Assembly (NCBI GenBank): GCA_900771805.1
Contig: CAAGPL010000045.1
Location: 90 to 64,089, forward strand
Length of the DNA stretch: 64,000 nucleotides
Reading direction: 5' to 3'
DNA from: Bacilli bacterium
GTDB lineage: Bacteria; Bacillota_I; Bacilli_A; RF39; UBA660
Under the pieces are notes generated by a model. The model searched no databases, was not told where the DNA came from, and saw only the letters and a program-made list of their open reading frames with translations. Positions 3,618 to 64,000 of this stretch are shown here, one piece after another; the stretch's first letter is position 1; each line of letters opens with the position of its first letter. The position numbers and the translations under genes are program-made.

Positions 3618-3646
3618 AAAATTCCAAGTAATTTGGAATTTTTTTA
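3616..3646. terminator. Bidirectional hairpin terminator
   Basis: aaaaattccaa-gtaat-ttggaattttt lies between convergent genes, with A and T runs on either side. Confidence 0.6.
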
Positions 3647-4036: not shown

Positions 4037-4056
4037 TGTAATAACCTCCTATATAT

Positions 4057-4503
4057 TTATTTATTAAATAACGAAATTGTTTTTTGAGTATCTCTTTTTA
4101 TATCTTTTTCTTTCAAGCTTTGTCTTTTATCATAAAGCTTTTTACCTTTTGCTATACCAAGTAATATTTTAGCTCTACCATCTTTTAAATATAATTTAAC
4201 AGGAACCAGTGAATATCCTTCTTTTTCTACCTTATCCCTTATTTTATATATTTCTTTTTTATGAAGTAAAAGCTTTCTTTCTCTTCTTTCGTCATGATTA
4301 AAACGGTTTCCTTCTTCATATGTTGAAATAAACATATTAGTTAAGAAAACTTCACCATTTTTAACCCTAGCATAGCTATCTTTTAAATTACAGCTTCCTT
4401 TTCTAATAGATTTTATCTCAGTACCAGTTAAAACAATTCCACATTCATAAGTATCTTCTATAAAATAATCAAAAGAAGCTTTTTTATTTTTTATTTCTAT
4501 CAT
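4057..4503 (-). CDS. smpB: SsrA-binding protein SmpB
   Basis: 148 aa. [28 protein letters not shown] and [12 protein letters not shown] motifs. Located beside rnr and near ssrA. Confidence 0.95.
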
Positions 4504-5660
4504 TATTCTACCTCTACTATATTTCCATATCTGGTTAAAACACTTTTATACTTATTATAGTATGTTTCATAATTATTTAGAAGACTATTATTTAATTTTG
4601 TATAGGGATATACTTTAAAATTATGACTACCCTTAAAATAAGTATACAAAAGATTAGCTTTAATATTATTAAAAGTTATTTTTCCATTTAAATCTTTATT
4701 TATATTTAATGTAATAAGCGTTCCTGTTTGTTTATCAGGAGTATCTTGTGCCGAGATAAAATTACCTAGTGCATAAAATACTAATGTATCATTAATCATT
4801 TCTACTGGTTGAATACTATGTGCATGATTTCCTATTATAAGATTAACTCCCATTTTAGATAATTCTTCTGCAACCTGTTTTTGATTACTATTAGGATTTG
4901 TTGTATACTCTTCACCCCAGTGCATAGAAACAATAATAAAATCCACCTTATCTTTTATGATATCAATATCATTTTTAGCTTTTTCCTTAGAATAAATGTT
5001 AGTTAGATATTCCTTTCCACTAGGTGGTAAAAGTCCATTTGTAACAGTTGTATAAGCTAAAAAAGCGTACTTTATGCCATTTTTTTCTTCTATTTTAATA
5101 TTATTTTCTCTATCTTCATCTGATAAAGCTTGTCCTGTATAATAAACTCCTGATTTAGTTTTCCAATAATTTACTGAATTTATTACTCCTTTTTCTCCTT
5201 TATCCATGGTATGATTATTAGCTAAACTAACTAAATTAAAGCCTAAATTAACCATTGTATCTCCTATTTCTTCAGGAGAATTAAATCTCGGATATGCTGA
5301 AAGTCCTAAAGATTTACCACCTATTATACTCTCTTGATTATAAAAAGCTAAATCATGTCCTTTAATTAAAGGAGAAACCTCATCAAACATACTGTCAAAA
5401 GAATATGTTCCATCACTATTTAAGGCATCAGTATAAACAAATCTATGAATTAAGCAATCACCTACCATAACCATAGAAAGTCTATTTGACTCTTTATTAG
5501 ATTCAGTACTTTTTTTTGTTACCTTTTGTTTTTTATTAGTCTTTTTATTAGTTATATCATTTTTTTCATAAATGAAAAACCCCAAAAATATTATTATTGA
5601 TAATAATATTATATAAATTAAAACCTTAACCCACTTTTTTAACTTTCTCTTGCTCTTCAT
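4503..5660 (-). CDS. CapA-family metallophosphoesterase-like protein (PGA_cap domain), membrane-anchored
   Basis: 385 aa with an N-terminal TM helix. [23 protein letters not shown] and GNHAHS motifs are typical of the CapA/YwtB family. The start overlaps the rnr 3' end by 35 nt. Confidence 0.75.
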
Positions 5661-7767
5661 CTTTTACTTCTTCCTTTTTTATTTCAAAATCTATAAAAGC
5701 TTCCTCTTTAGATGCACTTTTACAAATTACCGTTACTGTATCTCCAATTCTATATCTTCTTTTTGTCTTTTGGCCTACCAAAGACATTGTTCTTTCATCA
5801 TAATTATAATAATCACCTTTAATATCAGTTATATGAACTAAACCCTCTATCATATTAGGTAGTTCAACAAACATACCAAATGAAGTAACACCACTTATCA
5901 TACCAGTAAATTCTTCTCCAATATGATCCATCATGTACTCAGCCATCTTCATATCTTCAACTTCTCTTTCACATTCTATTGCATCTCTTTCTTTTAATGA
6001 TGAATGTTCTGCAAGTTGTGGCAAATACTCTCTAAAGTAATCAGTCGTTTTTTTAGATTCGTCATTATTATATAAATATGTTCTTAAAAGACGATGCACG
6101 GTTGTATCTGGAAATCTTCTAATTGGTGAAGTAAAGTGGGTATATATTTTACTAGCAAGTCCAAAGTGACCTATATTGTCTGTTTGATATACAGCCTTTT
6201 GCATTGCACGAAGCATAAGTGATGCTAATATTTTATATTCTTTTTTATCTTTTAACTGACTTAATACATTTTCTATTGAAGATGGATACTTAATGTTTAC
6301 CTTGCCTGTTATTTTATAACCTAAAGAACTTACGAAATCCAAAAAGTCATTTACTTTTTCTTCTTTTGGAGTTCCGTGAACACGGTATATAAATGGTAAA
6401 TCCATATAGAATATATGTGATGCAACCGTTTCATTAGCTGCTATCATAAAGTCTTCTATCATTTTTTCACCAGTTGCACGTTCTCTTAAAACTACATCTA
6501 CTGGCTTTCCAGTATCATCTGAAATTATTTTAGCTTCATCAGTATCAAAATCAATTGCACCACGCGCTTTCCTATTATGTCTTATAATGTCTGCTAATTC
6601 TTTCATTAGTGATAAATCATTTGTAAAAGGAGCATATCCATCTTCTACAATACCTTCATCTAACCATTTATTAACTTTTTTATAAGTCATTTGAATCCTT
6701 GATTTAATAACACTTTCAAATATTTCATGAGAAACAACATTTCCCTTGTTATCTATTTCCATTACGCAACTTTGCGCTAAACGTTCTACTCCAGGATTAA
6801 GTGAACATATACCATTAGATAATTTATGAGGTAGCATAGGTATTACCCTATCTACTAAATAAACACTAGTTCCTCTTTCATATGCTTCATCATATAGATG
6901 AGTACCTGGTTTAACATAATATGAAACATCTGCTATATGAACACCTAACTCGTAATTTCCATTAGCAAGTTTTTTAATTGAAATAGCATCATCTATATCC
7001 TTTGTATCATCACCATCTATTGTAAATATTGTAACGTCAGTTAAATTTCGTCTTCCCTTTTTATCATCGTCGCTTACAGAATCTGGTATATCCTTTAATT
7101 CTTCTAAAACTTCATCAGGAAATTTAGGAGAAAACATATGTTTATAAACAATTGCCTCAACATCAACACCAACATCATTTTTATGGCCTATAATATTTGT
7201 TATCTCTGCTAAAACAGTATTTCTATCAAGTTCTTTAACAACGTTTGCAACAACGATATGACCTTCTACACAGTCTTTTGTACTTTCCTTAGTTAAAACT
7301 ATTTTTTGTTTAAACTTCTTATCATTTGGGATAATTGTCGGAATATCATTTATAAACTTAAATTCACCTACTATTGGTCCATAATTTCTAGATGCTATTC
7401 TAAGTACTCGCCCCTCTTTTTTAGAACCAGTATTTTTATTAGTAATTTCTACAATTACCACATCACCATCTATCGCACCATTTAAATGTTTGGCATCAAC
7501 GTGAATATCATCTTCACCTTCCATTAATACAAAACCAAAACCTTTATCCGAAATAGAAATCTTCCCCTTTTTTAAGTGACTATATTTAAATGCCATATAT
7601 TTATCCTTATTTGTATGATATATTGTTAGATTACTTTCTAGTTCATTTAGTACTTTTAACATTTCTTCTACTTCCTCAGTAGTATTTAAACCTAATATAT
7701 CTTTAAGTTCGATAGCAGTATATGCTCTATCTTCCTCTTCTAAAATATTTAGTATTCTGTCTTTCAT
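5626..7767 (-). CDS. rnr: Ribonuclease R
   Basis: RNB catalytic region (FTIDGDDTKDIDDAISI, TSPIRRFPD) plus a C-terminal S1 domain and a basic/acidic tail. The track start (GTG at 7776) lies inside the RBS aggtga, so ATG at 7767 (MKDRIL...) is preferred. Confidence 0.95.
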   Translation of the reverse strand: MKDRILNILEEEDRAYTAIELKDILGLNTTEEVEEMLKVLNELESNLTIYHTNKDKYMAFKYSHLKKGKISISDKGFGFVLMEGEDDIHVDAKHLNGAIDGDVVIVEITNKNTGSKKEGRVLRIASRNYGPIVGEFKFINDIPTIIPNDKKFKQKIVLTKESTKDCVEGHIVVANVVKELDRNTVLAEITNIIGHKNDVGVDVEAIVYKHMFSPKFPDEVLEELKDIPDSVSDDDKKGRRNLTDVTIFTIDGDDTKDIDDAISIKKLANGNYELGVHIADVSYYVKPGTHLYDEAYERGTSVYLVDRVIPMLPHKLSNGICSLNPGVERLAQSCVMEIDNKGNVVSHEIFESVIKSRIQMTYKKVNKWLDEGIVEDGYAPFTNDLSLMKELADIIRHNRKARGAIDFDTDEAKIISDDTGKPVDVVLRERATGEKMIEDFMIAANETVASHIFYMDLPFIYRVHGTPKEEKVNDFLDFVSSLGYKITGKVNIKYPSSIENVLSQLKDKKEYKILASLMLRAMQKAVYQTDNIGHFGLASKIYTHFTSPIRRFPDTTVHRLLRTYLYNNDESKKTTDYFREYLPQLAEHSSLKERDAIECEREVEDMKMAEYMMDHIGEEFTGMISGVTSFGMFVELPNMIEGLVHITDIKGDYYNYDERTMSLVGQKTKRRYRIGDTVTVICKSASKEEAFIDFEIKKEEVKDEEQEKVKKVG

Positions 7768-7802
7768 AAGATTCACCTATCTTTCTATATATATTATAAA
7801 AC

Positions 7803-7831
7803 AAAAAAAGACTATTAATAAAGTCTTTTTT
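7803..7831 (-). terminator. Hairpin terminator after secG
   Basis: aagact-attaataa-agtctt flanked by A/T runs, immediately after the secG stop. Confidence 0.55.
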
Positions 7832-7834
7832 ATA

Positions 7835-8044
7835 TTACATGTCTATTATTATACATAATAAGAAAAATATAATTCCTAAGACATAAGTTAAACGTGTAAT
7901 AAGTAATTCTCCACCACGTTCTTTTCTATTCATAAATAAGTCAGCATTTCCACCAGTTATTATATTTCCTGATTCTGCCTTCTCACTTTGTAAAAGAACT
8001 ATAATAATAAGTAAAATAGACACAACCATTAAAAATGTAAGCAT
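7835..8044 (-). CDS. secG: Preprotein translocase subunit SecG
   Basis: 69 aa, two TM helices, LLQSEK...GG motif. Conserved position between eno and rnr. Confidence 0.85.
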   Translation of the reverse strand: MLTFLMVVSILLIIIVLLQSEKAESGNIITGGNADLFMNRKERGGELLITRLTYVLGIIFFLLCIIIDM

Positions 8045-8123
8045 AACTATTCCTCCTAGCTACTACTTATTTTATCATATTATAATATGTATTTCAACAA
8101 AGAAATAGTAATTAATATATGAA

Positions 8124-9353
8124 TTAACCTTCTAGTTCTTCTTCAATTCTCATTAATTGGTTATATTTACATATTCTATCAGTTCTAGACATAGAACCTG
8201 TTTTTATTTGACCTAAATTAAGACCTACAGCTAAATCTGCTATTATCGTATCTTCTGTTTCACCACTTCTGTGAGATATTATTGTTTTATAACCATTTTC
8301 TTTAGCTAATTTAATTGTTTCTAAAGTCTCTGTTATAGTACCTATTTGATTTACCTTTAAAAGAATTGCATTTCCTGCTTTCATATCGATGCCTTTTTGT
8401 AAACACTCTTTATTTGTAACAAAAAGATCATCACCAACTAACTGAAGCTTATCTCCTAATTCTTTAGTTATTTTAGCAAACCCCTCCCAGTCATTTTCAT
8501 CTACAGGATCTTCTATTGAAATAATAGGATACTTACTTACTAACTCTTTATAGAAATCTATTAATTCATCAGTAGAAAGACTTCTTCCTTCTCCTTCCAA
8601 ATTATACTTACCATCACTATAAAACTCTGATGCTGCAACATCTATTGCTAGTTTTACGTCAACACCAGGCGTATATCCAGCTTTTTTAATAGCTTCCATA
8701 ATAAGTTCAAAACCTTCTGTATTTGAATCTAAATCAGGGGCAAAACCACCTTCATCACCAACTCCTGTTGATAATTTCTTTTCGTTTAATACACTTTTTA
8801 AAGCATGAAATACTTCTGAACCTACTCTTACTCTTTCATGAATAGTATCTCTTTGTGGTATTATCATAAATTCTTGAAAGTCTAATTTGTTATCAGCATG
8901 AGCACCGCCATTTAATATATTCATCATTGGTATAGAAAGAGTTTTTCCATCTCCAACATATTTATATAAAGGCACACTACTTTCTTTTGCAGCAGCTTTT
9001 AAACAAGCCATAGAAACGCCTAGTATTGCGTTAGCTCCTAAATTACTTTTTGTTTTAGTACCATCTAATTCTAACATGGCATTATCAATGCTATATTGGT
9101 CTTTAACATCCATACCAATTAATACTGGTCTTATTTTTTCATTTACGTTTTTAACCGCATTTAATACTCCCTTACCGTTAAATCTAGTTTTATCATTATC
9201 ACGCATTTCAAGAGCTTCACGCATACCAGTTGATGCACCAGACGGAACACATGCCCTTTCCATTATTCCATTTTCTAAAATAACATCTACCTCAACAGTA
9301 GGATTACCCCTAGAATCAAGTATCTCCCTTGCCTTTATATTTTTTATTTTCAT
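8124..9353 (-). CDS. eno: Enolase
   Basis: 409 aa. [29 protein letters not shown] and SHRSGETED motifs. Confidence 0.98.
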
Positions 9354-9481
9354 ATTTAAATCCTCCTATTTATACATATATATTATATCATAATTTTGGA
9401 TAATTTATCGTGTTATGTAAATTGACTTTAGCATAACATATGAGGTATAATAAAGTATAAGAATAAATAGGAGGGATTATT

Positions 9482-10735
9482 ATGCAAATTATATTACTTG
9501 ATGAAATAAGATTTGATAATTTTGCAATTAATCATCCTTGCTATAACTTTTATCAATCTAGTAATTATGGAAAATTTATGACCAAACACGGCTATAATTC
9601 TTATTATTTAGGCCTTGCTGATGATAACGGAGAAATTAAAGCTGCAACATTAATGATAGTAAAAAATGATTCTAAAGAAAGAAGAAAAATGGGATATGCT
9701 CCAAGAGGATTTTTAATAGATTGGAATAATTATGAATTAGTAAAAGAATTTACTGAAAAATTAAAAGAATTTCTAGCAAGTCGTAGTTTTACTTATTTAA
9801 AAGTTGATCCATTAATTATTCTTAAAGAACATAATATAAACGGAGAAATAAAACAAAATACGGTGGATAATACTAGTTTTGTTAATAAATTACAATCTTT
9901 AGGATATATTCACATGGGATATAATAATGGTATGGAAGCATTAAAACCAAGATGGAGTGCAGTTATGAATTTAAATAGTAATATAACCTTACTATATAAT
10001 TCTATTTCTAAAGATGCTAGAAATAAAATTAACGAAGCATCCAAAATGGGAAATAAAGTTTATAAAGGAAGTATGAATGATATTAATTTGCTCTATAATA
10101 TTATAAATAAAGCAACACCACCATTAGAATATTATTTAGATTATTATCAATTTTTTAGTCAAAATAACGGTTTTGAAATATATTTTACAAAATTAGAACC
10201 AGTATCATATGTTAATTCTAGCAAAACATTATATGAAAATGAAGAACAAAAAAACAATGAATTAAATATGCAAATACAAGATTTTAATACACCAAATAAA
10301 GATCTTATAATAAATGAAAAATTAAAATCAGATGAGTTACTTTCAAAATATAAAAGAAATATGTTAGAAGCTAGTAGCCTGTTTCAAAAATATCCAAGTG
10401 GACTAGTAATCTCTGGTGTTGCTGTTATAAAATACGGAAAAAAAATAACTTTCTTAGCAAGTGGTGTTCACGAAAATTTCAAAAATATTTATCCTGAATA
10501 CTTATTAAAATGGCAACTAGCTAGTGAATTTGCAAAAAAAGGATATGAATTAGTTGACTTAGGTAGTTTAACTGGAGATTTTAATAACAATAACTATTTA
10601 AGTTCTTTAAATAAAGAATTATCTAATAGTATAATAGAATATGTAGGTGAATTTGATTTAGTAATAAATAAAAAGAGTTATTATACTGGTAACAAATTAA
10701 ACCCTATTCTAAACTGGCTTAATACACCAATATAA
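9482..10735 (+). CDS. FemAB-family aminoacyltransferase (peptidoglycan interpeptide bridge formation)
   Basis: 417 aa. The N-terminal FxQSxxYGxF-like motif (FYQSSNYGKFM), a central coiled-coil insert and the overall length match FemX/MurM-type enzymes. Confidence 0.7.
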   Translation: MQIILLDEIRFDNFAINHPCYNFYQSSNYGKFMTKHGYNSYYLGLADDNGEIKAATLMIVKNDSKERRKMGYAPRGFLIDWNNYELVKEFTEKLKEFLASRSFTYLKVDPLIILKEHNINGEIKQNTVDNTSFVNKLQSLGYIHMGYNNGMEALKPRWSAVMNLNSNITLLYNSISKDARNKINEASKMGNKVYKGSMNDINLLYNIINKATPPLEYYLDYYQFFSQNNGFEIYFTKLEPVSYVNSSKTLYENEEQKNNELNMQIQDFNTPNKDLIINEKLKSDELLSKYKRNMLEASSLFQKYPSGLVISGVAVIKYGKKITFLASGVHENFKNIYPEYLLKWQLASEFAKKGYELVDLGSLTGDFNNNNYLSSLNKELSNSIIEYVGEFDLVINKKSYYTGNKLNPILNWLNTPI

Positions 10736-53124: not shown

Positions 53125-53331
53125 TTATGAACTTATTACAACATTATTAATTAAAACATCTTTATAACCAAAACTTTTAATATCAGTCTTTGTTTTTAAT
53201 GTCCATATGTTTTGATATGTATTTAAAATTACCCCCTCATACATTTCGTTTTTGTTTCTGCCTATATCAACATAAACCTTTATTTTTTTTCCTTTTAGCA
53301 ATGTTATATTTTTTTTGATTTCATCAAGCAT
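53125..53331 (-). CDS. veg: Veg protein
   Basis: 68 aa. LDEIKKNI...GKKIKVYVDIGRNKNEMYEGVILNTYQNIW...FGYKDVL parallels B. subtilis Veg. Lies directly downstream of yabG as in B. subtilis. Confidence 0.8.
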   Translation of the reverse strand: MLDEIKKNITLLKGKKIKVYVDIGRNKNEMYEGVILNTYQNIWTLKTKTDIKSFGYKDVLINNVVISS

Positions 53332-53342
53332 TTGTATCTCCT

Positions 53343-53840
53343 TTATCTTGGGTATCCCGTCGTCATAACCCCTCTTGTATTTACTCCTCCTATACCATCT
53401 TTACCATTACTTGTTTTTTCAAGTAACTCTAGCAAATCAACATTTTTATTTTTATCCGACAAACTAAGAGACAATGCAATTATTGCCGGGTCTAAGGCAT
53501 GTATATTTATTCTCTTTGGACTTGATGCAAAATTAGCACCCGCTTTTATTAATTTTTCATAATCTGATTGACACGCACCTGCAATAATTATTAATTTATC
53601 ATAATCACGTTGATATTTCCTGCAAACTTTAACCGCACCACAAAAATATTTTGAATTTTCTTTAGTTTTTGAATCATGGCCAGTTATAACAACTATATCA
53701 GGGTTTATATCTTTTAGATACTTTTCGATATTTTTTTCCATATCACTTTCTTCAGAATAAACTCCATAAGCCAAAACATTAGCATCCTTATAAAAAGATA
53801 AACATCTATTTAAATATTCCTTGTCACCATCTGCTGACAT
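53343..53840 (-). CDS. yabG: 3' segment of the sporulation-specific protease gene yabG (peptidase U57); 5' portion missing from this locus
   Basis: 165 aa. DGDKEYLNRCL, VVITGHD, IIAGACQS, GANFASSPKRINIHALDP and GGVNTRGV match the C-terminal ~165 residues of the ~290-aa B. subtilis YabG (from memory). In-frame TAA and TAG lie immediately 5' of the ATG, and a recombinase gene ends 51 nt away. Confidence 0.8.
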   Translation of the reverse strand: MSADGDKEYLNRCLSFYKDANVLAYGVYSEESDMEKNIEKYLKDINPDIVVITGHDSKTKENSKYFCGAVKVCRKYQRDYDKLIIIAGACQSDYEKLIKAGANFASSPKRINIHALDPAIIALSLSLSDKNKNVDLLELLEKTSNGKDGIGGVNTRGVMTTGYPR

Positions 53841-53891
53841 TTACTAAGTAAGTCGAAAGCCTTTTTTATAAGCAAGACCCAATGTCTTACC

Positions 53892-55469
53892 TTAATATAA
53901 TTTAATATTTTTTGTTTTTCCTACACCAAATTTAAATATTATTTCTATTGTATTATCTTTATTAATGATAACTTTTTTTATTAAACTTCTTATATATTCT
54001 TTATCCATTATATCTTTTTTTATAAATTTATTATAAATATCTATTAGCTCATTTTTCTTTTCTTCACAGTTCATTTCTTCTATTAATTCTTTCAAATTAA
54101 ATTCTAGCTTTTCCTTTTCTAAAGATATATCCTTTTTTCTTTTAATAAATTCCTCTAGACTAATATCGCCCTTTGTTTTAGAAAGATATATACCTTTAAG
54201 CCTCATATCACAATTTTCTATTGCTTTATTTATATTTTCAATCTTCATCTTTGGTCTGTGTTTTTGATTAACTTCCTTCATGACGTCATTTATCGCATCA
54301 TCAGAATTAACATAAACTTTGATCAAATCCTTTATATTATCTTCCAAAATTGTTCTTAATTTAGAATCATATAAAGTTCTATTATCACATTTTTTTCTGT
54401 TTATTGTTTTATTACAAGAAAAATAATATACCTCTTTCCCATTTTTCGTTTTTCGGCAAGCAGTCATTTCATTGCCACAGCATCCGCAAAAAACTAATCC
54501 TTTTAATGTACCATCATAATTATTTTTTTGCCTTCTAGCATTACTTTTAAGTTTTGAATTAGCTTCTATAAATAATTCATTACTAACAATTGCAGTATGT
54601 GCATCACTAATTTCTTTTCTATCTCTTATAGGAATCCATTTTCGTTTCTTTTGTCTAAAGTCCTTTTTTTCGCTCTTTCTTACTACGATAGATCCTGTGT
54701 AAGTTTTATTTTTAATTATCCTATATATTATTTTATCAGTCCAATCATAATAATATTTTTTATTTTTGCTTGGAGTAATATTCATATATATAACAGGTGG
54801 TGCAATTTTTTCATTATTTAAAACGTCTGCAACTTCTTTTCTTGACATACCAGATGCGATACTTGAAAATATTCTCTTAACTATACTTGCTGAATACTCA
54901 TCTACTTCTAAAAATCTTTTTTTATCTTTTTTTACTACTTTATAGCCATATGGTGCTGTAAAACCAATAAATTCTTTATTATTCGTTTTAGTAAGTGATA
55001 CTTGTTTTCTTTTAATAGAAGTATCTCTTACATGTTGACTATTTATAACGGATTTTATTTGCACAAGACTATTTTTTTGAAAGTCACTAGGATTATTAGA
55101 ATCGTAGCAATCATCAATTGCTATAAATCTAATATTATATTTTGGAAAGTACTCGCTTATATAGTAGACTGTATCAATAAAATCTCTACCTAATCTTGAT
55201 ATATCTTTAGTTATTACTGTATCAATTAAGCCGGCTTGAATATCTGAAATAAGTTTTTCAAATGCTGGTCTTTCAAAATTGATGCCTGAATAACCATCAT
55301 CAATATATTCTTTATTAATATGAAAGTTCATCTTCTTAGCATATTCATTCATTATACTAATTTGATTATAAATACTCTCTGAATAATCATTTTTAACGTT
55401 TGAATCTTTATTCGATAACCTTGCGTATGACACTACCATTTTTTCATTAATCATTGTTTGACTCTCCAT
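53892..55469 (-). CDS. Large serine recombinase (SpoIVCA/phage integrase type), junction-proximal
   Basis: 525 aa. VVSYARLS catalytic Ser, DDGYSG, KDISRLGRD, a recombinase domain, a Zn-ribbon (CGCCG...CNK...C) and a C-terminal coiled coil. Overlaps the upstream recombinase by 23 nt. An alternative ATG at 55454 sits behind ggagag. Confidence 0.9.
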   Translation of the reverse strand: MESQTMINEKMVVSYARLSNKDSNVKNDYSESIYNQISIMNEYAKKMNFHINKEYIDDGYSGINFERPAFEKLISDIQAGLIDTVITKDISRLGRDFIDTVYYISEYFPKYNIRFIAIDDCYDSNNPSDFQKNSLVQIKSVINSQHVRDTSIKRKQVSLTKTNNKEFIGFTAPYGYKVVKKDKKRFLEVDEYSASIVKRIFSSIASGMSRKEVADVLNNEKIAPPVIYMNITPSKNKKYYYDWTDKIIYRIIKNKTYTGSIVVRKSEKKDFRQKKRKWIPIRDRKEISDAHTAIVSNELFIEANSKLKSNARRQKNNYDGTLKGLVFCGCCGNEMTACRKTKNGKEVYYFSCNKTINRKKCDNRTLYDSKLRTILEDNIKDLIKVYVNSDDAINDVMKEVNQKHRPKMKIENINKAIENCDMRLKGIYLSKTKGDISLEEFIKRKKDISLEKEKLEFNLKELIEEMNCEEKKNELIDIYNKFIKKDIMDKEYIRSLIKKVIINKDNTIEIIFKFGVGKTKNIKLY

Positions 55470-57090
55470 TTATATTAAAATTAAAATATATCCTTACTTT
55501 TTTGTTTTTATCAATTGTTATTTTTTTAATAATTTCTCTTAATAAATTACTATCAGGATTTTTAACTTTTAAAAAATTATTGATTATTTTCTTTTTCGTT
55601 TTTTCATCATTAATGTCACTCTTGTCATCGCTTAGCATTCCATTTAAATCTGATATTTTATCTGACAAGATTAATTTTTCATTACTAAGGTCTTTCTTTA
55701 TATTAACAAACTCTTCCGTATTAATAATTCCTGACATCTTGTCTTTATACAAATCACTAATTGCTTTGTCAACATTTTTTAGTTTTACATAGTACTGATC
55801 TAACTCCGCTTGATAATTATTTAGCAAATCTCTATCTTGAAGAGCTAAATCATATGCTTTTGACAATTCTTTATTATCAGAATATTTAATAAGAATTTTC
55901 CTTATTTCATCTAATACTAATTTATTCAAAGCCTCTTCCCTATAATAATGCATAGAACATACATTACTCCTATATGTAGCATAAGTCCTACAACAATATA
56001 CTGCATAAATAGAATTTTTACTTTTTTTAGACTTACTTTTACATCTTCTAACAAGCATAGCCTTTCCACAATCTTCACAAAAAACTAATCCTTTTAACAA
56101 ATAATCATATTTTACATGTCTAATATCTAGTTTAATGCTTTCAGCCAATTTCTTGTTTGCAAGCTCAAAACTTTTCTTATCTATTATAGGTTCATGATTA
56201 TTTTTTTTAATTATCCACATATTTTTAGGTAACAATCTTTTTTTCTTTGATTTCAAACTTACTCTTTTATATTTTCCTTGAATCAAAGTTCCTATATATA
56301 CTTCATTAGTAATGATATTATTAATTGCACTACCCTTCCATAAATTAGTAGTAAAAGTTTTTTTGATTTTCTTATTATTATAAACACTTGGTGGTAATAT
56401 TCCTTCATTCGTTAATGATCTTGCTATCATATTTGGAGACTCACCATTAATTTTCATTTTGAATATTCTTTTTACAATATTAGCTGCATATTCATCAACC
56501 ACTAATTTTCTATTATCATCTTTAGATCTAGCATATCCATATGGAACTGTACTTCCAACAAATAAGCCTTGTTCCATCAAATTATGTCTTACAGAAATTA
56601 TCTTCCTTGATGTTTCCTTTAAAAACATATCATTAATAACAGTCTTTAATGGAATCATATCATCATTACTTCTTGGTTCTTCGGTATCAAATTCGTCCAA
56701 TATTGAAATATATCTAACATCATTTTCAGGAAAGTATTTATATATATATACTCCTGTACCTATAAAATCTCTACCTAATCTTGATGTATCCTTTGTTATT
56801 ACACAATTTATAATTCCGCACTCTATATCATTTATTAATCGTTTGAAGGCTGGTCTTTCAAAATTACCACCCGAATAACCATCATCAACGTAATAATCAT
56901 ATATTTCTATACCGGCTTTTTTTGCATAATCTTTTATGCATTCTTTTTGATTTACTATACTGGAACTCTCACCATCATTATTTTCAGTTATAGATAGTCT
57001 AGCATATCCAGCTGCTTTGTATGATTTTCCTGTTATATCTTGTATCAATTTTGCGTTATCTCCTTTCTGCTTAATAACCATACAAATCAT
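55447..57090 (-). CDS. Large serine recombinase (second, upstream copy)
   Basis: 547 aa. AAGYARLS, DDGYSGGNFERP, KDTSRLGRD, a Cys-rich ribbon (CEDCG...CCR...C) and a coiled-coil tail. No clear RBS before the first ATG. An in-frame TTG behind aaaggag (codon 15) is an alternative start. Confidence 0.9.
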   Translation of the reverse strand: MICMVIKQKGDNAKLIQDITGKSYKAAGYARLSITENNDGESSSIVNQKECIKDYAKKAGIEIYDYYVDDGYSGGNFERPAFKRLINDIECGIINCVITKDTSRLGRDFIGTGVYIYKYFPENDVRYISILDEFDTEEPRSNDDMIPLKTVINDMFLKETSRKIISVRHNLMEQGLFVGSTVPYGYARSKDDNRKLVVDEYAANIVKRIFKMKINGESPNMIARSLTNEGILPPSVYNNKKIKKTFTTNLWKGSAINNIITNEVYIGTLIQGKYKRVSLKSKKKRLLPKNMWIIKKNNHEPIIDKKSFELANKKLAESIKLDIRHVKYDYLLKGLVFCEDCGKAMLVRRCKSKSKKSKNSIYAVYCCRTYATYRSNVCSMHYYREEALNKLVLDEIRKILIKYSDNKELSKAYDLALQDRDLLNNYQAELDQYYVKLKNVDKAISDLYKDKMSGIINTEEFVNIKKDLSNEKLILSDKISDLNGMLSDDKSDINDEKTKKKIINNFLKVKNPDSNLLREIIKKITIDKNKKVRIYFNFNINGESNND

Positions 57091-57127
57091 AAATTATTAT
57101 TAAAAATAAATCGAATGTGCAAATTTA

Positions 57128-57247
57128 TTAATAATTTTTATTTTGCACAATTGACATAACATATTTTTTAAAAATTTCAGTTATAAGCTGATCTATTGGT
57201 TTTCCATTTTCATCATATATACATAATACTAATTCTTCGTTTTCCAT
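57128..57247 (-). CDS. Small ORF (39 aa) with strong RBS
   Basis: gggaggaaaaaATG, then MENEELVLCIYDENGKPIDQLITEIFKKYVMSIVQNKNY. Below the track cut-off. Its stop lies inside the spacer of an 8-bp inverted repeat (57116-57149). Confidence 0.35.
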   Translation of the reverse strand: MENEELVLCIYDENGKPIDQLITEIFKKYVMSIVQNKNY

Positions 57248-57338
57248 TTTTTCCTCCCATTAAACCTATGACCATAATATTTTTTTCATACATAAAAAAA
57301 ATAGGATATTTAATCGTTTTAAAAAAGCATAAATTACC

Positions 57339-57530
57339 CTATCTGTTGATTTTAGATATTTTATATTTTAAATAAAAGTCTTTTCCAAAAATATTCATTA
57401 ATTTACTTTTATCTTTTATATTCTGCTTTAATAAATTATCTATTTTTCTAATTGCATCCCTTTTGTTATATGCATTTACTTTCATACTTGTTTTTTGTAT
57501 AAATTTAACATCAACTAAATAATCTTTCAT
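57339..57530 (-). CDS. Small phage-type protein, paralogue B (63 aa)
   Basis: Shares the pattern MK-[DN]-[YF]-x-[VI]-x-V-[KR]-[FL]...V.A....AI..[IV]...L..N with the upstream ORF. ATGA start/stop overlap with it. Confidence 0.55.
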   Translation of the reverse strand: MKDYLVDVKFIQKTSMKVNAYNKRDAIRKIDNLLKQNIKDKSKLMNIFGKDFYLKYKISKINR

Positions 57531-57751
57531 ACATTCACCCTAACAAATGGAATTGATAAATTTTCTCTTGATCTTGACTTTAATTCTTTCTTTTGAAGTT
57601 TATATTTTATATTATTACTATTATTAATGTTTAAAATATCATTATTTTCGAGTGTGTCTTTTACCATATTAATTGCTGATAATTCATCATCAGCTATCAC
57701 ATTAAAATTAATATTTTTACACAACCTTACTTTTATATTAAAATTTTTCAT
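57527..57751 (-). CDS. Small phage-type protein, paralogue A (74 aa)
   Basis: First gene after a terminator and a structured leader. RBS aaagaaagga. Paralogous to 57339-57530. Confidence 0.55.
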   Translation of the reverse strand: MKNFNIKVRLCKNINFNVIADDELSAINMVKDTLENNDILNINNSNNIKYKLQKKELKSRSRENLSIPFVRVNV

Positions 57752-57893
57752 TACAAAATTCCTTTCTTTTTATTTTAAGAGGGTTTTAGTTTGCCCACAA
57801 CTCCTGTGCCAATAAGGTCACGTTACCTGGCGTTTTTTACTTAGTGACATATCGGTGATTTTCACTAAGGCTAAATTGTCAAAGAACACCCTG
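57752..57893 (-). promoter_or_regulatory. Unusually GC-rich structured leader upstream of the small-protein/recombinase operon
   Basis: Contains TTGACA (57878-57883, minus strand) without a good -10. Also an 8-bp inverted repeat cttagtga/tcactaag (57840-57869) and a gcca..aggt-cacgtt-acct..tggc hairpin (57808-57831). No ORF. Confidence 0.3.
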
Positions 57894-57938
57894 TAACAAA
57901 AAAAACAGGCAAAAGGAAATAATATCCTTTCACCTGTT
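57894..57938 (-). terminator. Rho-independent terminator after the sigma-r4-like regulator gene
   Basis: Minus strand reads aaacaggtgaaagga-tattatt-tccttttgcctgtt followed by T8. Confidence 0.65.
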
Positions 57939-57973
57939 TGTTCACTTAAATGTGATTTAGCAACCTAAATCTC

Positions 57974-58450
57974 TCATTTTTTTGAAATTTTATAAAATTC
58001 TTTTAATTTTTCTAATGCCAATTTCAAACTTTTAGAAATAGATTGATGTGTTGTATTCTCTTCTTCAGCAATCTGATAAATGTTTTTATTTTGAAAATAA
58101 TATTTAATAAGTCTTCTTTTTTGAACTTCTGATAGCTTATTAATGAAATTTAATAAATCCTGATATTCATATTTTTTCAAAATAATATCTTCTAAATTTT
58201 CATGTTTATATACTAATCTTGAATTAATAGTCCATTCATAAATCTCACTATGTTCTATATGTCTTTTGTATTCGTTAATCTCACAAACATCATCAAGTTC
58301 AAATCTATCCATTAAATCAAATACATCTTTTCTTACTTCAATATTTCTTAATATATTTTTACTATCTTTAAACAAAACATAATATTTTTCACCACTTACC
58401 TCTAGAGTATATGGATTATCTTTTTTTCTGCTTCTTTTTGGTCTTTTCAT
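57974..58450 (-). CDS. Sigma-70 region-4 / ArpU-like HTH regulator (mobile-element associated)
   Basis: 158 aa. Basic N-terminus (KRPKRSRKKDNPYTL). C-terminal LSEVQKRRLIKYYFQNKNIYQIAEEENTTHQSISKSLKLALEKLK resembles a sigma region 4 HTH. Confidence 0.6.
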   Translation of the reverse strand: MKRPKRSRKKDNPYTLEVSGEKYYVLFKDSKNILRNIEVRKDVFDLMDRFELDDVCEINEYKRHIEHSEIYEWTINSRLVYKHENLEDIILKKYEYQDLLNFINKLSEVQKRRLIKYYFQNKNIYQIAEEENTTHQSISKSLKLALEKLKEFYKISKK

Positions 58451-58512
58451 TTACCATCCTTTCTATTGATTTTTTTCAATAAAAAGGTGGACCTCTAGAA
58501 AAATAAAAAGAT

Positions 58513-58562
58513 ATAAAAAAAATCCTAGATGGGATTATAAAACTAATACCACATCTAGGATT
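58513..58562 (-). terminator. Rho-independent terminator (11-bp stem)
   Basis: aatcctagatg-(20 nt)-catctaggatt followed by T8 on the minus strand, about 270 nt downstream of the endolysin stop. Confidence 0.65.
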
Positions 58563-58738
58563 TAAAGTTACAAATATAAATAAAAACCAAAACCCACTAA
58601 TCATAGCAGCACACCCATCAATGCCACAACAATTTACTACAATAGTAAAAGTGTATAGATGTACTGCTAAATATCTAAACCTTATACCTAAAAATATTAT
58701 TTACTACTATAAAGGCATTGCTCCTTTTTTTGCTTGCT

Positions 58739-58767
58739 ATTATATATTTTTATGGTATAAATGTAAA
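58739..58767 (-). promoter_or_regulatory. Candidate sigma-A promoter of a short non-coding transcript
   Basis: Minus strand reads TTTACA, 17 nt, TATAAT. The nearest downstream terminator is at 58513-58562, with no credible ORF between them. AT-rich background makes chance matches likely. Confidence 0.3.
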
Positions 58768-58829
58768 TGAGATTTTTCTAATATAAAAAGTATTTTAATA
58801 TTATTTTCAAATGATATATTTCTTCATAT

Positions 58830-59555
58830 TTAATATGAAAAACCATAACTTATTAAAGCTTTTAATGTTTTCGGACCAATTCTACCATCTATTTCATCAT
58901 CATATCTTCCATCTTTTTTCGCTCTTTTTTGAAATTCAATAACCCATTTTTCCAAATATGGTCCAAATAAATTTCCATCCAATACATCATGTGCATCTTT
59001 TTTGTTATTATAAAAATACCCATAATATTGTTCAGCAAAAAAATTGCATATTTTCCCAATGTTTACATGATAATCTCCACGTTTAAAACATATTTTTCCA
59101 TCAAAAAACGAATTATTAGAAGTATTTGTTGAGCAGTTATAATTAAACGTCTCTGGATTTAAATATTTTCCTGTGGATAAATCAACTATTGATAAATGTA
59201 AATGGATACCTGTTGCTTTTCCACTCATACCAGTATATCCAAGTAAAGTTCCCTTTGATACTGTTTGTCCATTATGACAGTTTATACTGGATAAGTGATA
59301 GTGTAACATTTTAACATTAATTCTAGGATATTTTACCCACACATATTTTCCACCTAATTTATCGGTTCCACAACTTAAAACACTTCCATTTTCTATCGCA
59401 TACTGAGGTAATTTTATACCATTCGTTCCATAATCTGTTCCACTATGATAACTACTAGTATATCCTCCTTTAGTATTTATTCTTTTTCTTGTGCCAAACC
59501 CAGATGTCATATAATGAGTTGCGTTCTTGAAAATTAAATTTGTTATGTTACTCAT
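58830..59555 (-). CDS. Endolysin: M23 metallopeptidase with C-terminal PG_binding_1 domain
   Basis: 241 aa. HSGTDY (HxxxD) and GIHLHLS (HxH) M23 motifs. C-terminal ...FQKRAKKDGRYDDEIDGRIGPKTLKAL peptidoglycan-binding repeat. Confidence 0.85.
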   Translation of the reverse strand: MSNITNLIFKNATHYMTSGFGTRKRINTKGGYTSSYHSGTDYGTNGIKLPQYAIENGSVLSCGTDKLGGKYVWVKYPRINVKMLHYHLSSINCHNGQTVSKGTLLGYTGMSGKATGIHLHLSIVDLSTGKYLNPETFNYNCSTNTSNNSFFDGKICFKRGDYHVNIGKICNFFAEQYYGYFYNNKKDAHDVLDGNLFGPYLEKWVIEFQKRAKKDGRYDDEIDGRIGPKTLKALISYGFSY

Positions 59556-59784
59556 CTTCTATTACCTCGTATATAGGTTCTTGATTACTATTATTACTTT
59601 TTGTTTTATCAATTTGATCTTTATTAAAAAAGTATGTTGCTATCATACCCACTACTAGCATAAAATTATCGCTATCAATTCTTCCTGACACAGACAAATA
59701 AAAGAACGCTGCAAATGTAAGCAGCGTTATTATTGATTTTACTTTAAGTAAACTAACTAATGACTTTAATATCATTTCTTTCAT
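59548..59784 (-). CDS. Holin-like protein (two TM helices, charged C-terminus)
   Basis: 78 aa. Overlaps the endolysin start by 8 nt and the upstream ORF by 4 nt. Hydrophobic helices followed by an acidic tail. Confidence 0.65.
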   Translation of the reverse strand: MKEMILKSLVSLLKVKSIITLLTFAAFFYLSVSGRIDSDNFMLVVGMIATYFFNKDQIDKTKSNNSNQEPIYEVIEDE

Positions 59785-60080
59785 TTTCTATCATCCTCCT
59801 TTACATTTGGTAATTCATATAATTTATTAATAATTTTAGTAACCATGCCATTACCACCTAACTTGTGATAATTTTCATACATTTCCTTTAAGTTTTCTTT
59901 CATATAACTTGGGCAATATCCTAATTTTTCTTGTTTATCATAAATTCTAATAATTTCATTTCTTAAAAGAGCAATCATTCCGTTTTTTAACCCTATATAC
60001 TGTTTAAAGATATAAATGATACCAGAAGTAATAGATGTTAATAGTATTTCTATCCAATACTTTATTATAAAATTTATCAT
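59781..60080 (-). CDS. Membrane-anchored lysis-cassette protein
   Basis: 99 aa. N-terminal TM helix, then YMKENLKEMYENYHKLGGNGMV. The family occurs beside holins in Firmicute phages (recollection, not verified). Confidence 0.5.
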   Translation of the reverse strand: MINFIIKYWIEILLTSITSGIIYIFKQYIGLKNGMIALLRNEIIRIYDKQEKLGYCPSYMKENLKEMYENYHKLGGNGMVTKIINKLYELPNVKEDDRK

Positions 60081-60187
60081 AAGTTCACCTCTTCAAATAA
60101 TAAAAAACATAATGATAATAAAATCAAAATGTTTTTTAGATAAGTATTTTTTATTATTTTCTGAGTTAATTTTTTATATGGTTTATC

Positions 60188-60571
60188 TTAACTTATTATA
60201 TAGTTTATTATTTCTTCATCACTTTTTTTTGTTCCATCAGAATTATAATAAATCAACACTGTTTCAATTGCCATTTTTAACATAAACATATACAGTATAA
60301 GTTCACGTCCATAACTTGTATTTTTATATCTATTTATATATACATCTGTTTTTTTTCTCATATCTTTATCGATAGTAAAAATTTCATAATTAAAATCTTT
60401 GACACATCTTGTGAACTTGTCAAATAACCCACTATAATATTCATCAGCCATTTCAAGATTAAGTTCATAAATTGCTAGTGGAGTTTTTCTTTCATTTATA
60501 TTTTTTACAAGATTTAAATCAGATTCATATCTTTTTTTTAAAAGGAACCTTTGTCTTTCTTTTTCATTCAT
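60188..60571 (-). CDS. Putative immunity protein for the RHS C-terminal toxin
   Basis: 127 aa, cytoplasmic-looking. Begins 29 nt after the RHS stop on the same strand. No family recognised, so the call is positional. Confidence 0.5.
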   Translation of the reverse strand: MNEKERQRFLLKKRYESDLNLVKNINERKTPLAIYELNLEMADEYYSGLFDKFTRCVKDFNYEIFTIDKDMRKKTDVYINRYKNTSYGRELILYMFMLKMAIETVLIYYNSDGTKKSDEEIINYIIS

Positions 60572-60599
60572 AAATTTATCTCCTTGTTTATATTTGTTA

Positions 60600-63500
60600 T
60601 CACTTTAACTTATACCAAAAGCGAATAATTTTACCATCGCTCATGAAATTTCCACCTTTTCCAAGATAATCTCTAACACCCCATATGGCATTTTTATGTG
60701 TATAATCGAATGTGTATTTTATAACACTTCTGTTTCTATTAGAAAAACTAATAGCATCATTAGTATATTTTACAATATTGTTACCTTTAGAAAATTCTTC
60801 ATCTATAACATGCTTTTGATAATGATATTTCATAGAATAATACCCATTATCGAAACTACCTTTATACCATTTAGAAGCCGCAATTGCGGTTCGCGTAATT
60901 CCATAACCAATTCCTGCTATTGAACCTACTATTGAACCCCACATTGCTCCATCAGATCCACCAGTAATAGCTGCTTTAAAAGACCCTTTATTACTTTTTC
61001 TTTTTTTCTTATTTTTGATTACTGATTTAGTCGCACCATATGCTGCACCAATTATAGTTCCACCAATTGCAAATTTTAATGCAGATGATGCTATATATCC
61101 AGCTACTCCAGAGGATGATCCACCTGTTGCCACTGTTACTACTGCACACGTTACAATAACAGCTGCAGCCGTTATAACTTTTAAAGCACTTTTAATTTTC
61201 CACTTAGGCCAATTACCATTTTCATCAGCATAATTAATCGGATTGTTTAAAGCATACTGATACATATTATTACCATCTAAATTCCCAATATCAGATATTC
61301 CTATATCGGCATTAATAAATCTTCTCCAATTTGGATTATAATATCTTTCATTTAAATAATATAATTTTGTTTCTTTGTCGTAGTAAAAACTTCTATATCT
61401 AAATGGATTTATGTTTGCAATATGAGAAATATCGGTTGATACATCATTGTCGTTTTCATCTGTAATAGAAATCATTTTCCCCCACGAATCATACTTATAT
61501 CTAGCAACTACATTGAAATTACAATCTAATATACCAACAATATCATCTTTGCTATTTTTCATATAATAATATATATCATCATTGTATTTAAATCCAATTA
61601 AATCATCTATATTACTACGTAAATAGTATAACACATTATCACCACTTTTTTCAAATATAATATCATTTCCATCTAAATAATATTTAGTTTCAATGCCATT
61701 TATAATTTTGCTCGTTCTAATACCATTATCATCATATTTATATGTTATATTATTTGATCCATCATTATATGATTTTAATTCTCTTCCGTTGGTCCAATTT
61801 AAATATATATTATTACCAATAGATAGAGGATTACCAATCTCATCATAACTTATTTCATGACCATTAAATTCTGTTAATTGATCTTCCCAAGCCTCATTAT
61901 TATACTTATATGTATTTTGATTAATAAATTCATATGTTTCAATATTATACACTCTTTCAAATAATATATTTCCAACATTGTCATATTTATATTTTGTAAT
62001 TGTTTTATCTTCATAATTAATTTCTTTTATAAGTTGATTAAAATTGTCATAATAATATTTGTTTACTATATTACCATTTTTATAAATATGAGTCATATTA
62101 TTTAAAGAATCATATTTATATAAAAACTTATCTGTTCCAGCCGTTAAACTTTTTATCATTGCTGACGTATTTTTACCATTTTTTAAATATTCATAATTCG
62201 TTTCATAAGCATCATTTATTTTACTACTTTTTATCCTTCCTATTGTATCATAACTATAATCTATTTTATTGTTATCAAATAAAGTACTGATTATTAAATC
62301 ATCATCATTAAAATTATTAGTTATTTCATTACTTAAATTATTCATATTATATTTAATTCCTATAACATTATCATTGGAATCATAATTATATTTAATTTTA
62401 AAATCATTAAATCTATATTCACTTAATTTTCCGGATAGATTATAGGAATATTTAATAATAGCATTATTTGATATTATTTTTGCTAGATTACCATTATTAT
62501 TATATTTATAATTATATATATCATCTATTTTAGTAGCCTTTTTTAATCTATTAAATTCATCATACTCATAATCAATAGAATCGCCATTCCCATAAACAGA
62601 TGATGTTAAACAATCACCTTGGTCATAGTAATTGCTAACAAGATTAACATCTTCTCCAATTTTGATATTTTTAATATTTAAAAATTCGTCGTATATGAAA
62701 TTATATTCCTTTGTTCCATATGTAATCTTACTTAATAAGTTCTTATCATTATATTTATATTCTACTTTTCTTCTTCCTTTAGAAACTTTTGTTAATTCAT
62801 TTTTATCACTATAAGTATAATATATTACATTCCCCTTAGAATCTGTTTCAGAATGAATTAATCCTGTTAACTCATCCATTTCATATAAACTAACATTACC
62901 AAATGGATCAGATATACTCTTAATAAATCTACCATCTTCTGTGTATTTCGCAGTATTTTCAATAAATAAATCAGAATCTATTGTCTCAAAATAAAATTCA
63001 AAACGAAAATCATCTTCTATTAAATCTGCTGCCTCTAAACCTGAATCAGTGATTTTTAAATATTTATCTTCTAGTTTTAATTTTATATAATAACTTCCAT
63101 TTTTATTCTTTTGAAGTTTAAATAATGATTTATCATTATTATAACTAGTTAGTAATACAAAGTTATCAATAATTGTAAAATATTTATCGTTAATTATAAA
63201 ATGGCTTATTTTAAAGTATTCTCCATCCTTTTTCAACTCCCATAAACTATGATTATAGTCCTCATCAGTTACAGAAATTTTATTGGCAATATTTTGCAAA
63301 TAATTATTTGTACCTTTTAATCTTATTTTGTATAAACCATCAGTTACATTACCAATAATATTATTTTTTTTAATTATGGTTGCAACCGGATTATTATTAT
63401 TATCATACTTTATTTGATTAGATATGCCCATATCAGATATACCATTAATAACTCTATCAGTAATAATATTATCATATTCAAATGCAAATCTTTTTCCTTT

Positions 63501-63998
63501 TGGATTAATCATTTGAATTAATTGATTATTTTTATCATAATTAAACTTATCACTATTATTTTCTGAATTATTTTCCAATATTACATTACCATTATCATCA
63601 TATTCATAATAAACATTTTTCACATCCTTAAATAAACTCATATTTGAAATATAAAAATTATTTGCAGTGTATTCATGACTTATCAATAATGTAATGGAAG
63701 TGTAATCTCTTTCAGCAACAAAATCATTTGATACATATTGCCAAGCTTCATCATTTATGTTTAATATTGGGCTTGGTAATACACAACCACCAGATTCTTC
63801 ACTATCAACATATTTGAAAATAATGAAAACTCTGCTCCCATAGTATTCTGATAAATTGGAATTTATGCCTTCATTTTTATACCAAAACGATATATTAAAT
63901 GTATCCCCACCTTTACCACTTATGTTGAACTTTTTCTCCATATTCGTAGTATGAACTGGGTTAAGTTTAGTTTTTAACGCCTTAACACCATTATCCAA
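60600..63998 (-). CDS. RHS/YD-repeat polymorphic toxin (N-terminus outside the window)
   Basis: More than 1132 aa. The apparent start is only a TTG at the window edge. Many YD repeats (YEYDDNGN, YKYNNNGN, YKYDNVGN...). RHS core end is RYYNPNWRRFINAD...YQYALNNPINYADENGN, followed by a 203-aa variable C-terminal region. Confidence 0.9.
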   Translation of the reverse strand: MDNGVKALKTKLNPVHTTNMEKKFNISGKGGDTFNISFWYKNEGINSNLSEYYGSRVFIIFKYVDSEESGGCVLPSPILNINDEAWQYVSNDFVAERDYTSITLLISHEYTANNFYISNMSLFKDVKNVYYEYDDNGNVILENNSENNSDKFNYDKNNQLIQMINPKGKRFAFEYDNIITDRVINGISDMGISNQIKYDNNNNPVATIIKKNNIIGNVTDGLYKIRLKGTNNYLQNIANKISVTDEDYNHSLWELKKDGEYFKISHFIINDKYFTIIDNFVLLTSYNNDKSLFKLQKNKNGSYYIKLKLEDKYLKITDSGLEAADLIEDDFRFEFYFETIDSDLFIENTAKYTEDGRFIKSISDPFGNVSLYEMDELTGLIHSETDSKGNVIYYTYSDKNELTKVSKGRRKVEYKYNDKNLLSKITYGTKEYNFIYDEFLNIKNIKIGEDVNLVSNYYDQGDCLTSSVYGNGDSIDYEYDEFNRLKKATKIDDIYNYKYNNNGNLAKIISNNAIIKYSYNLSGKLSEYRFNDFKIKYNYDSNDNVIGIKYNMNNLSNEITNNFNDDDLIISTLFDNNKIDYSYDTIGRIKSSKINDAYETNYEYLKNGKNTSAMIKSLTAGTDKFLYKYDSLNNMTHIYKNGNIVNKYYYDNFNQLIKEINYEDKTITKYKYDNVGNILFERVYNIETYEFINQNTYKYNNEAWEDQLTEFNGHEISYDEIGNPLSIGNNIYLNWTNGRELKSYNDGSNNITYKYDDNGIRTSKIINGIETKYYLDGNDIIFEKSGDNVLYYLRSNIDDLIGFKYNDDIYYYMKNSKDDIVGILDCNFNVVARYKYDSWGKMISITDENDNDVSTDISHIANINPFRYRSFYYDKETKLYYLNERYYNPNWRRFINADIGISDIGNLDGNNMYQYALNNPINYADENGNWPKWKIKSALKVITAAAVIVTCAVVTVATGGSSSGVAGYIASSALKFAIGGTIIGAAYGATKSVIKNKKKRKSNKGSFKAAITGGSDGAMWGSIVGSIAGIGYGITRTAIAASKWYKGSFDNGYYSMKYHYQKHVIDEEFSKGNNIVKYTNDAISFSNRNRSVIKYTFDYTHKNAIWGVRDYLGKGGNFMSDGKIIRFWYKLK

Positions 63999-64000
63999 TG

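Follow-up and report, generated by a model that had tools for sequence, protein, structure and literature searches.

Two adjacent large serine recombinases as a probable single module in the interrupted sporulation gene yabG

The recombinase pair and the element that interrupts yabG

In this work we analysed a stretch of 64,000 nucleotides (hereafter the window) from a Bacilli bacterium of the RF39 lineage (assembly GCA_900771805.1, contig CAAGPL010000045.1, called C45 below), in which two large serine recombinase (LSR) genes, rec1 and rec2, lie side by side at the end of a mobile element that interrupts the sporulation gene yabG. The two genes lie on the minus strand together with a small conserved open reading frame (ORF) upstream of rec1, and rec2 is followed by the 3' half of yabG and by veg. 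The coordinates of these features are collected in Table 1.

An earlier note on this DNA had read in both ORFs a complete LSR layout, and this reading is borne out. The Pfam domains Resolvase, Recombinase and Zn_ribbon_recom are all found in rec1 and in rec2, the YARLS, DDGYSG and SRLGRD motifs are legible in both proteins, and the four zinc-ribbon cysteines are in place. AlphaFold2 models computed from orthologue alignments (mean pLDDT 73.5 and 80.4) display the same layout for both proteins: a catalytic domain, a long helix, the recombinase domain, the zinc ribbon, two long antiparallel helices and closing strands. Both models match the SPbeta serine integrase over their full length in Foldseek (E 1e-22 to 1e-25), followed by the phiC31 and Bxb1 integrases, also full-length. 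The resolvase domain with its serine nucleophile, the recombinase domain and the zinc ribbon with an inserted coiled coil, which together define the LSR class, are thus present twice, in two proteins that share 37% identity over their full length.

The overlap of 23 nt reported earlier is that of the longest ORFs (55447..55469). A GGAGAG ribosome-binding site (RBS) lies 7 nt ahead of the second ATG of rec2 (55454), and rec2 is called from this ATG, as a protein of 520 aa, in two other assemblies. Because of the RBS placement and of these start calls, ATG 55454 is the likely start of rec2, and the working overlap with the rec1 stop is probably the 8 nt ATGATTAA. The true start of rec1 may be ATG 57081 (544 aa, so called elsewhere) or TTG 57048.

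The N-terminal part of yabG, its 5' half, is located on the same contig 35 kb away (C45:88902-89162). Read on the minus strand, attL is CATATAGA followed by CGCTGATATT, and attR is AATGTCAGCAGA followed by TGGTGACAAG. Joining the flanks at the shared GA deletes 34,990 bp and yields a yabG frame of 262 codons, whose 262-aa product shares 82% identity with an uninterrupted YabG from another genome of the genus. The insertion point is the Asp codon of the HIDGD motif (HID/GD). An uninterrupted yabG was found in all of ten long contigs from other metagenomes with an identical Veg protein and the same neighbour genes, and in five of these the natural empty site is identical to the joined flanks at 300/300 bases. 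Since the joined flanks equal empty sites of the same species, the element is a single insertion with clean boundaries and a 2-bp core, and its presence varies between strains. Elsewhere in the genus yabG is intact in 17 of the 18 other genomes searched, the eighteenth (67% complete) giving no match. A mother-cell sporulation gene split by DNA, with a precise join that restores the ORF, is the mark of sporulation intervening elements, and this is the arrangement found here.

The element encodes ParA, ParB, a sortase, a Cna-B-type adhesin, SSB, a Toprim primase, NikA/MobC, a MobA/VirD2 relaxase, a TraG/VirD4 coupling protein, a CHAP hydrolase, an RHS protein of 2093 aa, a holin-like pair, an M23 peptidase and two sigma-region-4 paralogues. 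Pfam supports MobA/VirD2, T4SS-DNA_transf/TraG, NikA/MobC, Toprim, CHAP, ParA/ParB and the sortase, and a VirB4-like ORF was judged by eye. On the basis of this gene content, with a relaxase, a coupling protein and other transfer genes, the element is an integrative conjugative element between exact att boundaries. The phage context assumed in the earlier note was not borne out: a prophage is ruled out by the same gene content, despite one protein with a Gp10-like baseplate domain and a holin/M23 cassette. The only recombinases of the 34,990-bp element are rec1 and rec2.

Table 1. Features of the locus (window positions) and consensus sequences of the att half-sites, read outward from the GA core.
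Feature	Position	Strand	Remarks
veg	53125..53331	-	after yabG 3' half
yabG 3' half	53343..53829	-	Peptidase_U57, profile positions 108-280; within ORF 53343..53840
attR	53800..53862	-	element arm ...CTTACTTAGTAAATGTCAGCA, crossover GA 53831-53830, yabG arm TGGTGACAAGGAATATTTAAAT...
Right-hand 10 kb of the 34,990-bp integrative conjugative element	53830..64000	-	continues past the window to C45:88910 (attL and yabG 5' half)
rec2, downstream LSR	53892..55469	-	525 aa as longest ORF
rec1, upstream LSR	55447..57090	-	547 aa as longest ORF
Conserved 39-aa ORF heading the operon	57128..57247	-	MENEELVLCIYDENGKPIDQLITEIFKKYVMSIVQNKNY; homologues upstream of rec1; called as gene in other assemblies
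Sigma-E-like (mother-cell sigma type) promoter	57263..57291	-	GTATGAA, 14 nt, CATAGGTT; about 15 nt before the RBS of the 39-aa ORF
ORFs of 74 and 63 aa, ahead of the promoter	57339..57751	-	homologues only in loci L017 and L018
Half-site P			TGCTGAc.tTtgtTaAGTAAc
Half-site P'			TGctGA.a.Tt.tTTaagtaAc
Half-site B'			TGGtGAtaa.gA.TATtTagA
Half-site B			tAtATG.AAaATttTaCCtGg

The pair, its att sites and its small ORF in other genomes

Homologues of rec1 are numerous: a scan of species-representative genomes returned 59 loci (labelled L), and more were found by exact-protein look-up. Among the 49 loci with enough flanking sequence to count gene order, every one has orthologues of both genes in the order rec1 (45-75% identity), rec2 (36-65%), so that related elements do always carry both genes, a point the earlier note had left to be checked. 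The reading frames overlap or adjoin each other (-1 to 26 nt in most loci), and in 42 of the 49 loci the 3' half of yabG comes next after rec2, within about 50-300 nt. The pair sits in yabG in about 50 other species of gut bacteria. In 19 loci only 0.4-8 kb separate rec1 from the 5' half of yabG upstream, and the thirteen loci with both yabG halves in the fetched stretch give an element size of 5.1-11.7 kb. The cargo of these small elements differs from locus to locus (secreted proteins, acetyltransferase-like genes, giant surface proteins, once housekeeping-type genes). No transfer or phage genes were seen in the small yabG elements examined, which keep both recombinases.

Within the order, rec1 orthologues are present in 17 of 400 genomes, from at least 11 genera, and rec2 orthologues in 14, each beside a rec1 orthologue. 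The remaining three rec1-positive genomes comprise two with a divergent, shortened rec2 and one whose contig ends inside rec1, and no solitary rec2-type gene was found in the 400 genomes. Of the LSRs outside the two orthologous groups, the ten closest (35-41% identity) each occur as a single gene.

Both proteins bear the signature of catalytically intact enzymes under constraint. In rec2 the Tyr-Arg-Ser motif (S19), the Gln, Asp-Asp-Gly, Ser-Arg-Leu-Gly-Arg and the zinc-ribbon cysteines are invariant in 49/49 orthologues, and the same residues of rec1 (Y29, R31, S33, SRLGR, four Cys) are invariant in all 42 orthologues free of frameshifts. Between closely related pairs, the ratio of nonsynonymous to synonymous substitution rates (dN/dS) is 0.10-0.22 for rec1 and 0.12-0.34 for rec2. 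In the tree each gene forms its own clade, with support of 0.84 and 0.999. Exclusive sister clades of rec1 and rec2, which a first tree gave with support of 0.999, did not hold, the node falling to 0.42 once ten further single LSRs of the bacterial family were included. The claim of a duplication private to the module is withdrawn, since single LSRs group with rec1 in the broader tree; the pair may have originated from an old duplication or from the capture of a second gene. The earlier description of clearly diverged paralogues that behave as a unit fits these data, with one operon, one att pair, constant association and both copies intact under purifying selection.

The element-side att arms are conserved across the family, and attP is an inverted repeat of roughly 50 bp with inner and outer motifs. 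The inner TGsTGA is common to the half-sites P, P' and B', whereas B, the fourth, differs and starts with TATATG. Such asymmetry fits two DNA-binding specificities, with which it is compatible without amounting to proof. A single att pair serves both genes, the end of rec2 being about 60 bp from the crossover.

A homologous ORF of 35-47 aa lies just upstream of rec1 in roughly four in five of 57 loci, as judged by eye, and 26 aligned copies give the consensus ..ELVICVYDEN..I..KILEAFEKYLKS.LQN. The 39-aa ORF of the window has no Pfam match and, in PHROGs, only a weak one (phrog_1963); its product may serve as a directionality or accessory factor. Farther upstream, the ORFs of 74 and 63 aa were ruled out as family-wide directionality factors, being found in the two closest loci only. 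The pattern [TG][TCA]AT[TGA]AA-N13-15-CATAnnnT, which matches the consensus given in PMC3789822, precedes the small ORF in 45 of the 57 loci, where less than one locus would be expected by chance given the background of 0.055 per kb. The spoIVA promoter of the host has the same layout (TCATAAT-N13-CATAGTAT), and the host genome encodes Spo0A, SpoIVA and sigma-E-like and sigma-K-like factors. No terminator was found between the small ORF, rec1 and rec2. In C. difficile the YabG homologue is sigma-K dependent (PMC3789822).

Several further observations were made at these loci and in the source genome. A MazF/PemK-like toxin gene lies just upstream of the small-ORF/recombinase operon in L052 (9310-9675), and remnants of such a gene have the same placement in L023/L028, L041, L073, L037, L071, L055, L024 and L068. 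A fragment of a third serine recombinase, limited to the N-terminal domain, follows rec2 in L024 (6434-6733) and L052 (13179-13676). In L035 (7476-11189) the yabG 3' half is split again, at about its residue 52, by a 3.2-kb insert that encodes a different, single LSR, 28% identical to rec1; yabG thus seems to be a repeated landing site. L028, on the same contig as L023, holds between the yabG halves (2506-9974) housekeeping-type genes on the opposite strand, for an arginyl-tRNA synthetase, a RelA/SpoT-like protein and an aldehyde dehydrogenase, which suggests a fixed, non-mobile intervening segment. In the element of the window, the sigma-region-4 paralogues of 158 and 160 aa (57974..58450, minus strand, and C45:68789-69271, equal to L003:15790-16272) border a module with the RHS toxin, an immunity gene, holin-like genes, the M23 peptidase and the Gp10-like baseplate protein, and this module may have entered the conjugative element at a later time. 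The source genome (1.2 Mb) has at least six further LSR genes or fragments, on contigs C57, C77, C43, C37, C82, C22 and C20, and across the order 234 of 401 genomes contain one or more LSRs, unusually many for genomes of this small size.

A proposed two-recombinase module and its alternatives

We consider it reasonably probable, from the sequence data, that rec1, rec2 and the 39-aa ORF constitute one obligate two-recombinase module, probably excised in the mother cell. rec1 and rec2 would be the two catalytic subunits of a single site-specific recombination module, encoded with the 39-aa ORF in one operon at the element end beside attR. This module would place DNA into the HIDGD Asp codon of yabG at the GA crossover and allow its precise removal, and both enzymes would take part in one and the same reaction, probably combined in a mixed complex. 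Because yabG harbours this unit in about 50 other species as well, both enzymes are probably needed together for excision, and a rec1/rec2 hetero-complex is likely since one of the four half-sites (B) differs from the other three. The operon would be switched on from its sigma-E-type promoter in the sporulating mother cell, where excision would rebuild yabG for spore-coat maturation; the mother cell is terminal, and the forespore chromosome would keep the element. The cargo of the module would be the 35-kb conjugative element here and 1-8 kb of unrelated DNA in many other species, in which restoring yabG would be the module's only evident job.

A more specific scheme is possible and is proposed tentatively. 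In a heteromeric LSR, rec2 would read the odd half-site B and rec1 the three TGsTGA half-sites, with the sigma-E-driven 39-aa protein setting the direction. The module would then be a domesticated mother-cell yabG switch, dispersed across a family of gut spore-formers with small genomes and available for a conjugative element to borrow, and one clade would need a programmed +1 frameshift (AAA-AGG) for full-length rec1.

A number of observations weigh against an obligate module of two enzymes. Seven loci from seven species (L062, with rec1 at 8949-10539, L064, L065, L066, L069, with GAA-AGG-AAG, L078 and L079) have in common a +1 frameshift, at CGG-AAA-AGG-AAA, that parts the serine-bearing segment of rec1 from the remainder; L076 has a separate, different rec1 frameshift, and rec2 is shortened at its C-terminus in three of the 49 loci. 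In L026, L036 and L052 the yabG 3' half is missing behind rec2. The pairwise-distance matrices of rec1 and rec2 correlate closely (r = 0.95, Mantel p = 0.001), which speaks for inheritance as a unit and not for interaction, because linked genes co-diverge anyway. Asymmetric att sites are also tolerated by single-enzyme integrases. A scan for the excised circle with an attP-specific pattern gave no match in viral contigs; in metagenome contigs it gave no strict match and five looser ones, all chance matches in unrelated DNA without a recombinase. The promoter call is a consensus match that cannot separate sigma-E from sigma-K, the CATA-type -10 box being common to both promoter classes in C. 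difficile (PMC3789822). Finally, TnpX and TndX, the closest characterised relatives and LSRs of clostridial mobile elements, act alone and with a relaxed target choice.

The shared frameshift is the sole common change of an inactivating kind, which the earlier note had named as the sort of finding that would speak against a working pair. In this clade the downstream 460-aa part has a dN/dS of 0.10-0.22, while the upstream 64 codons show a ratio of nonsynonymous to synonymous polymorphism (pN/pS) of 0.04-0.29, variation being purely synonymous in 13 codon columns and altering the amino acid in 7. Because both halves are under purifying selection, the shift seems to be bypassed rather than inactivating, and on this sequence evidence it looks like a programmed or bypassed frameshift and not like a pseudogene. 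With regard to the three loci in which yabG does not follow rec2, we observed in L026 (9341-13145) that the yabG 5' half stops only about 400 bp ahead of rec1, and that behind rec2 there is no yabG 3' half or attR-like arm, a surface-protein gene (>2685 aa) being found there instead. In a further locus, L050, an insertion sequence element and the contig end come directly after rec1.

Among the alternatives, a division of labour had been raised in the earlier note; in the form considered here, one LSR would serve the mobile cycle (integration after transfer, excision before conjugation) and the other the developmental excision in the mother cell. The complete conjugative element of the window does need vegetative excision too, and rec1 groups with single LSRs that evidently work alone. 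Such a split is nonetheless disfavoured and rather unlikely, because small elements of 5-12 kb without transfer genes keep both genes intact and under purifying selection; the two overlapping reading frames moreover share one promoter and only one att pair. It is also unlikely that a single enzyme does the catalysis with the other as a non-catalytic partner for directionality or DNA binding. The +1 shift, which parts the catalytic-serine segment of rec1 from the rest in seven loci, and the shortened rec2 of three loci would suit such a role. A purely structural second subunit is disfavoured because the catalytic residues (Ser nucleophile, Arg, Asp and Gln) are invariant in all rec2 and all unshifted rec1 proteins, and even the serine-bearing fragment of the frameshift clade is still under purifying selection.

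A redundant duplicate without selected function is highly improbable: LSRs are very abundant in the order, but these two share only 37% identity, fall into clades of their own, have a dN/dS of 0.1-0.3 across the family, and rec2 never occurs alone. It is scarcely credible that rec1 and rec2 stem from two distinct elements, nested or tandem, each bounded by att sites of its own: the element has a composite look, with two sigma-like paralogues around a toxin and lysis module, but nesting is excluded because rec2 overlaps rec1 and ends about 60 bp from the crossover, leaving no room for a second att pair, while the joined flanks are identical to the natural empty site, attL and rec1 are only about 400 bp apart in L026, and the same pair accompanies unrelated cargo in about 50 species.

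Comparison with known recombinase systems

The closest annotated relative of rec1 is TndX of Tn5397 (32% identity over 91% of rec1), and the catalytic domain of TnpX of Tn4451 matches both proteins (E = 3e-26). In contrast to these solitary enzymes, two enzymes and one strict target are found here. The precedent invoked by the earlier note was CcrA/CcrB of the staphylococcal cassette chromosome (SCC), in which two adjacent, diverged LSRs likewise belong to one element with one att pair, and in which, as reportedly found by Misiura in 2013 (cited in PMC12286644), both CcrA and CcrB are needed. The precedent stands as an analogy of function and falls as family membership: against an NCBIfam equivalog cut-off of 900 bits, the pair scores 95.3 and 120.4 bits for CcrB and 99.7 for CcrC, so the two proteins are not members. 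Moreover, SCC elements target the 3' end of rlmH (orfX), whereas the present site lies inside yabG, and the present pair, found in gut spore-formers with small genomes, has a small conserved ORF and a promoter of sporulation type ahead of it.

Conjugative elements of Streptococcus (Tn1806 type) carry triplets of serine integrases, in which each position forms its own clade (PMC4701971). The likeness is extensive, since these are also tandem LSRs in fixed order at the end of a conjugative element, inside a protein-coding gene and with repeats of 2-8 bp; the differences are that two genes and not three are present here, and that the target is a sporulation gene. Distant relatives (30-34% identity) with three tandem LSRs were also encountered in loci L077 (9255-15424) and L082 (8344-13124), outside the rec1 and rec2 clades.

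The elements skin (SpoIVCA), SPbeta (SprA/SprB), skinCd (CD1231/CD1234) and gin (GirC/GirX) each rely on one LSR and a small directionality factor, as do all intervening elements of sporulation genes described so far, yin included, whereas two LSRs are present here. The likeness otherwise is close: a mother-cell sporulation gene is interrupted, an LSR-based precise join restores its frame, and a small ORF next to the recombinase and a promoter of sigma-E/K type accompany it. The carriers of the present pair differ in that they range from a full conjugative element to 5-kb remnants, and here excision during sporulation is predicted. In yabG itself, the yin element of C. botulinum V73 is excised and circularised during sporulation (PMC10747680); it has one LSR by the yabG 5' half, a 14-bp repeat and a prophage-like content, and was reported as unique to one strain (PMC10747680). 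Compared by description, yin and the present elements share their target gene, but here a pair lies by the yabG 3' half, with a 2-bp GA core and in about 50 species. Interruption of yabG, known before from a single strain of C. botulinum, is thereby seen in a wide range of gut bacteria.

Taken together, the pair would widen the known multi-recombinase systems, CcrAB and the streptococcal triplets, by a two-LSR module of yabG. With two intact LSRs kept in about 50 species, including in 5-kb elements that have no evident role beyond restoring yabG, multi-recombinase modules would not be a staphylococcal or streptococcal oddity. The short conserved att sites, the odd half-site and the tiny third gene would make this a compact natural system for studying why some elements need more than one enzyme, and recognition of half-sites split between paired recombinases could, if true, interest those who build integrase tools.

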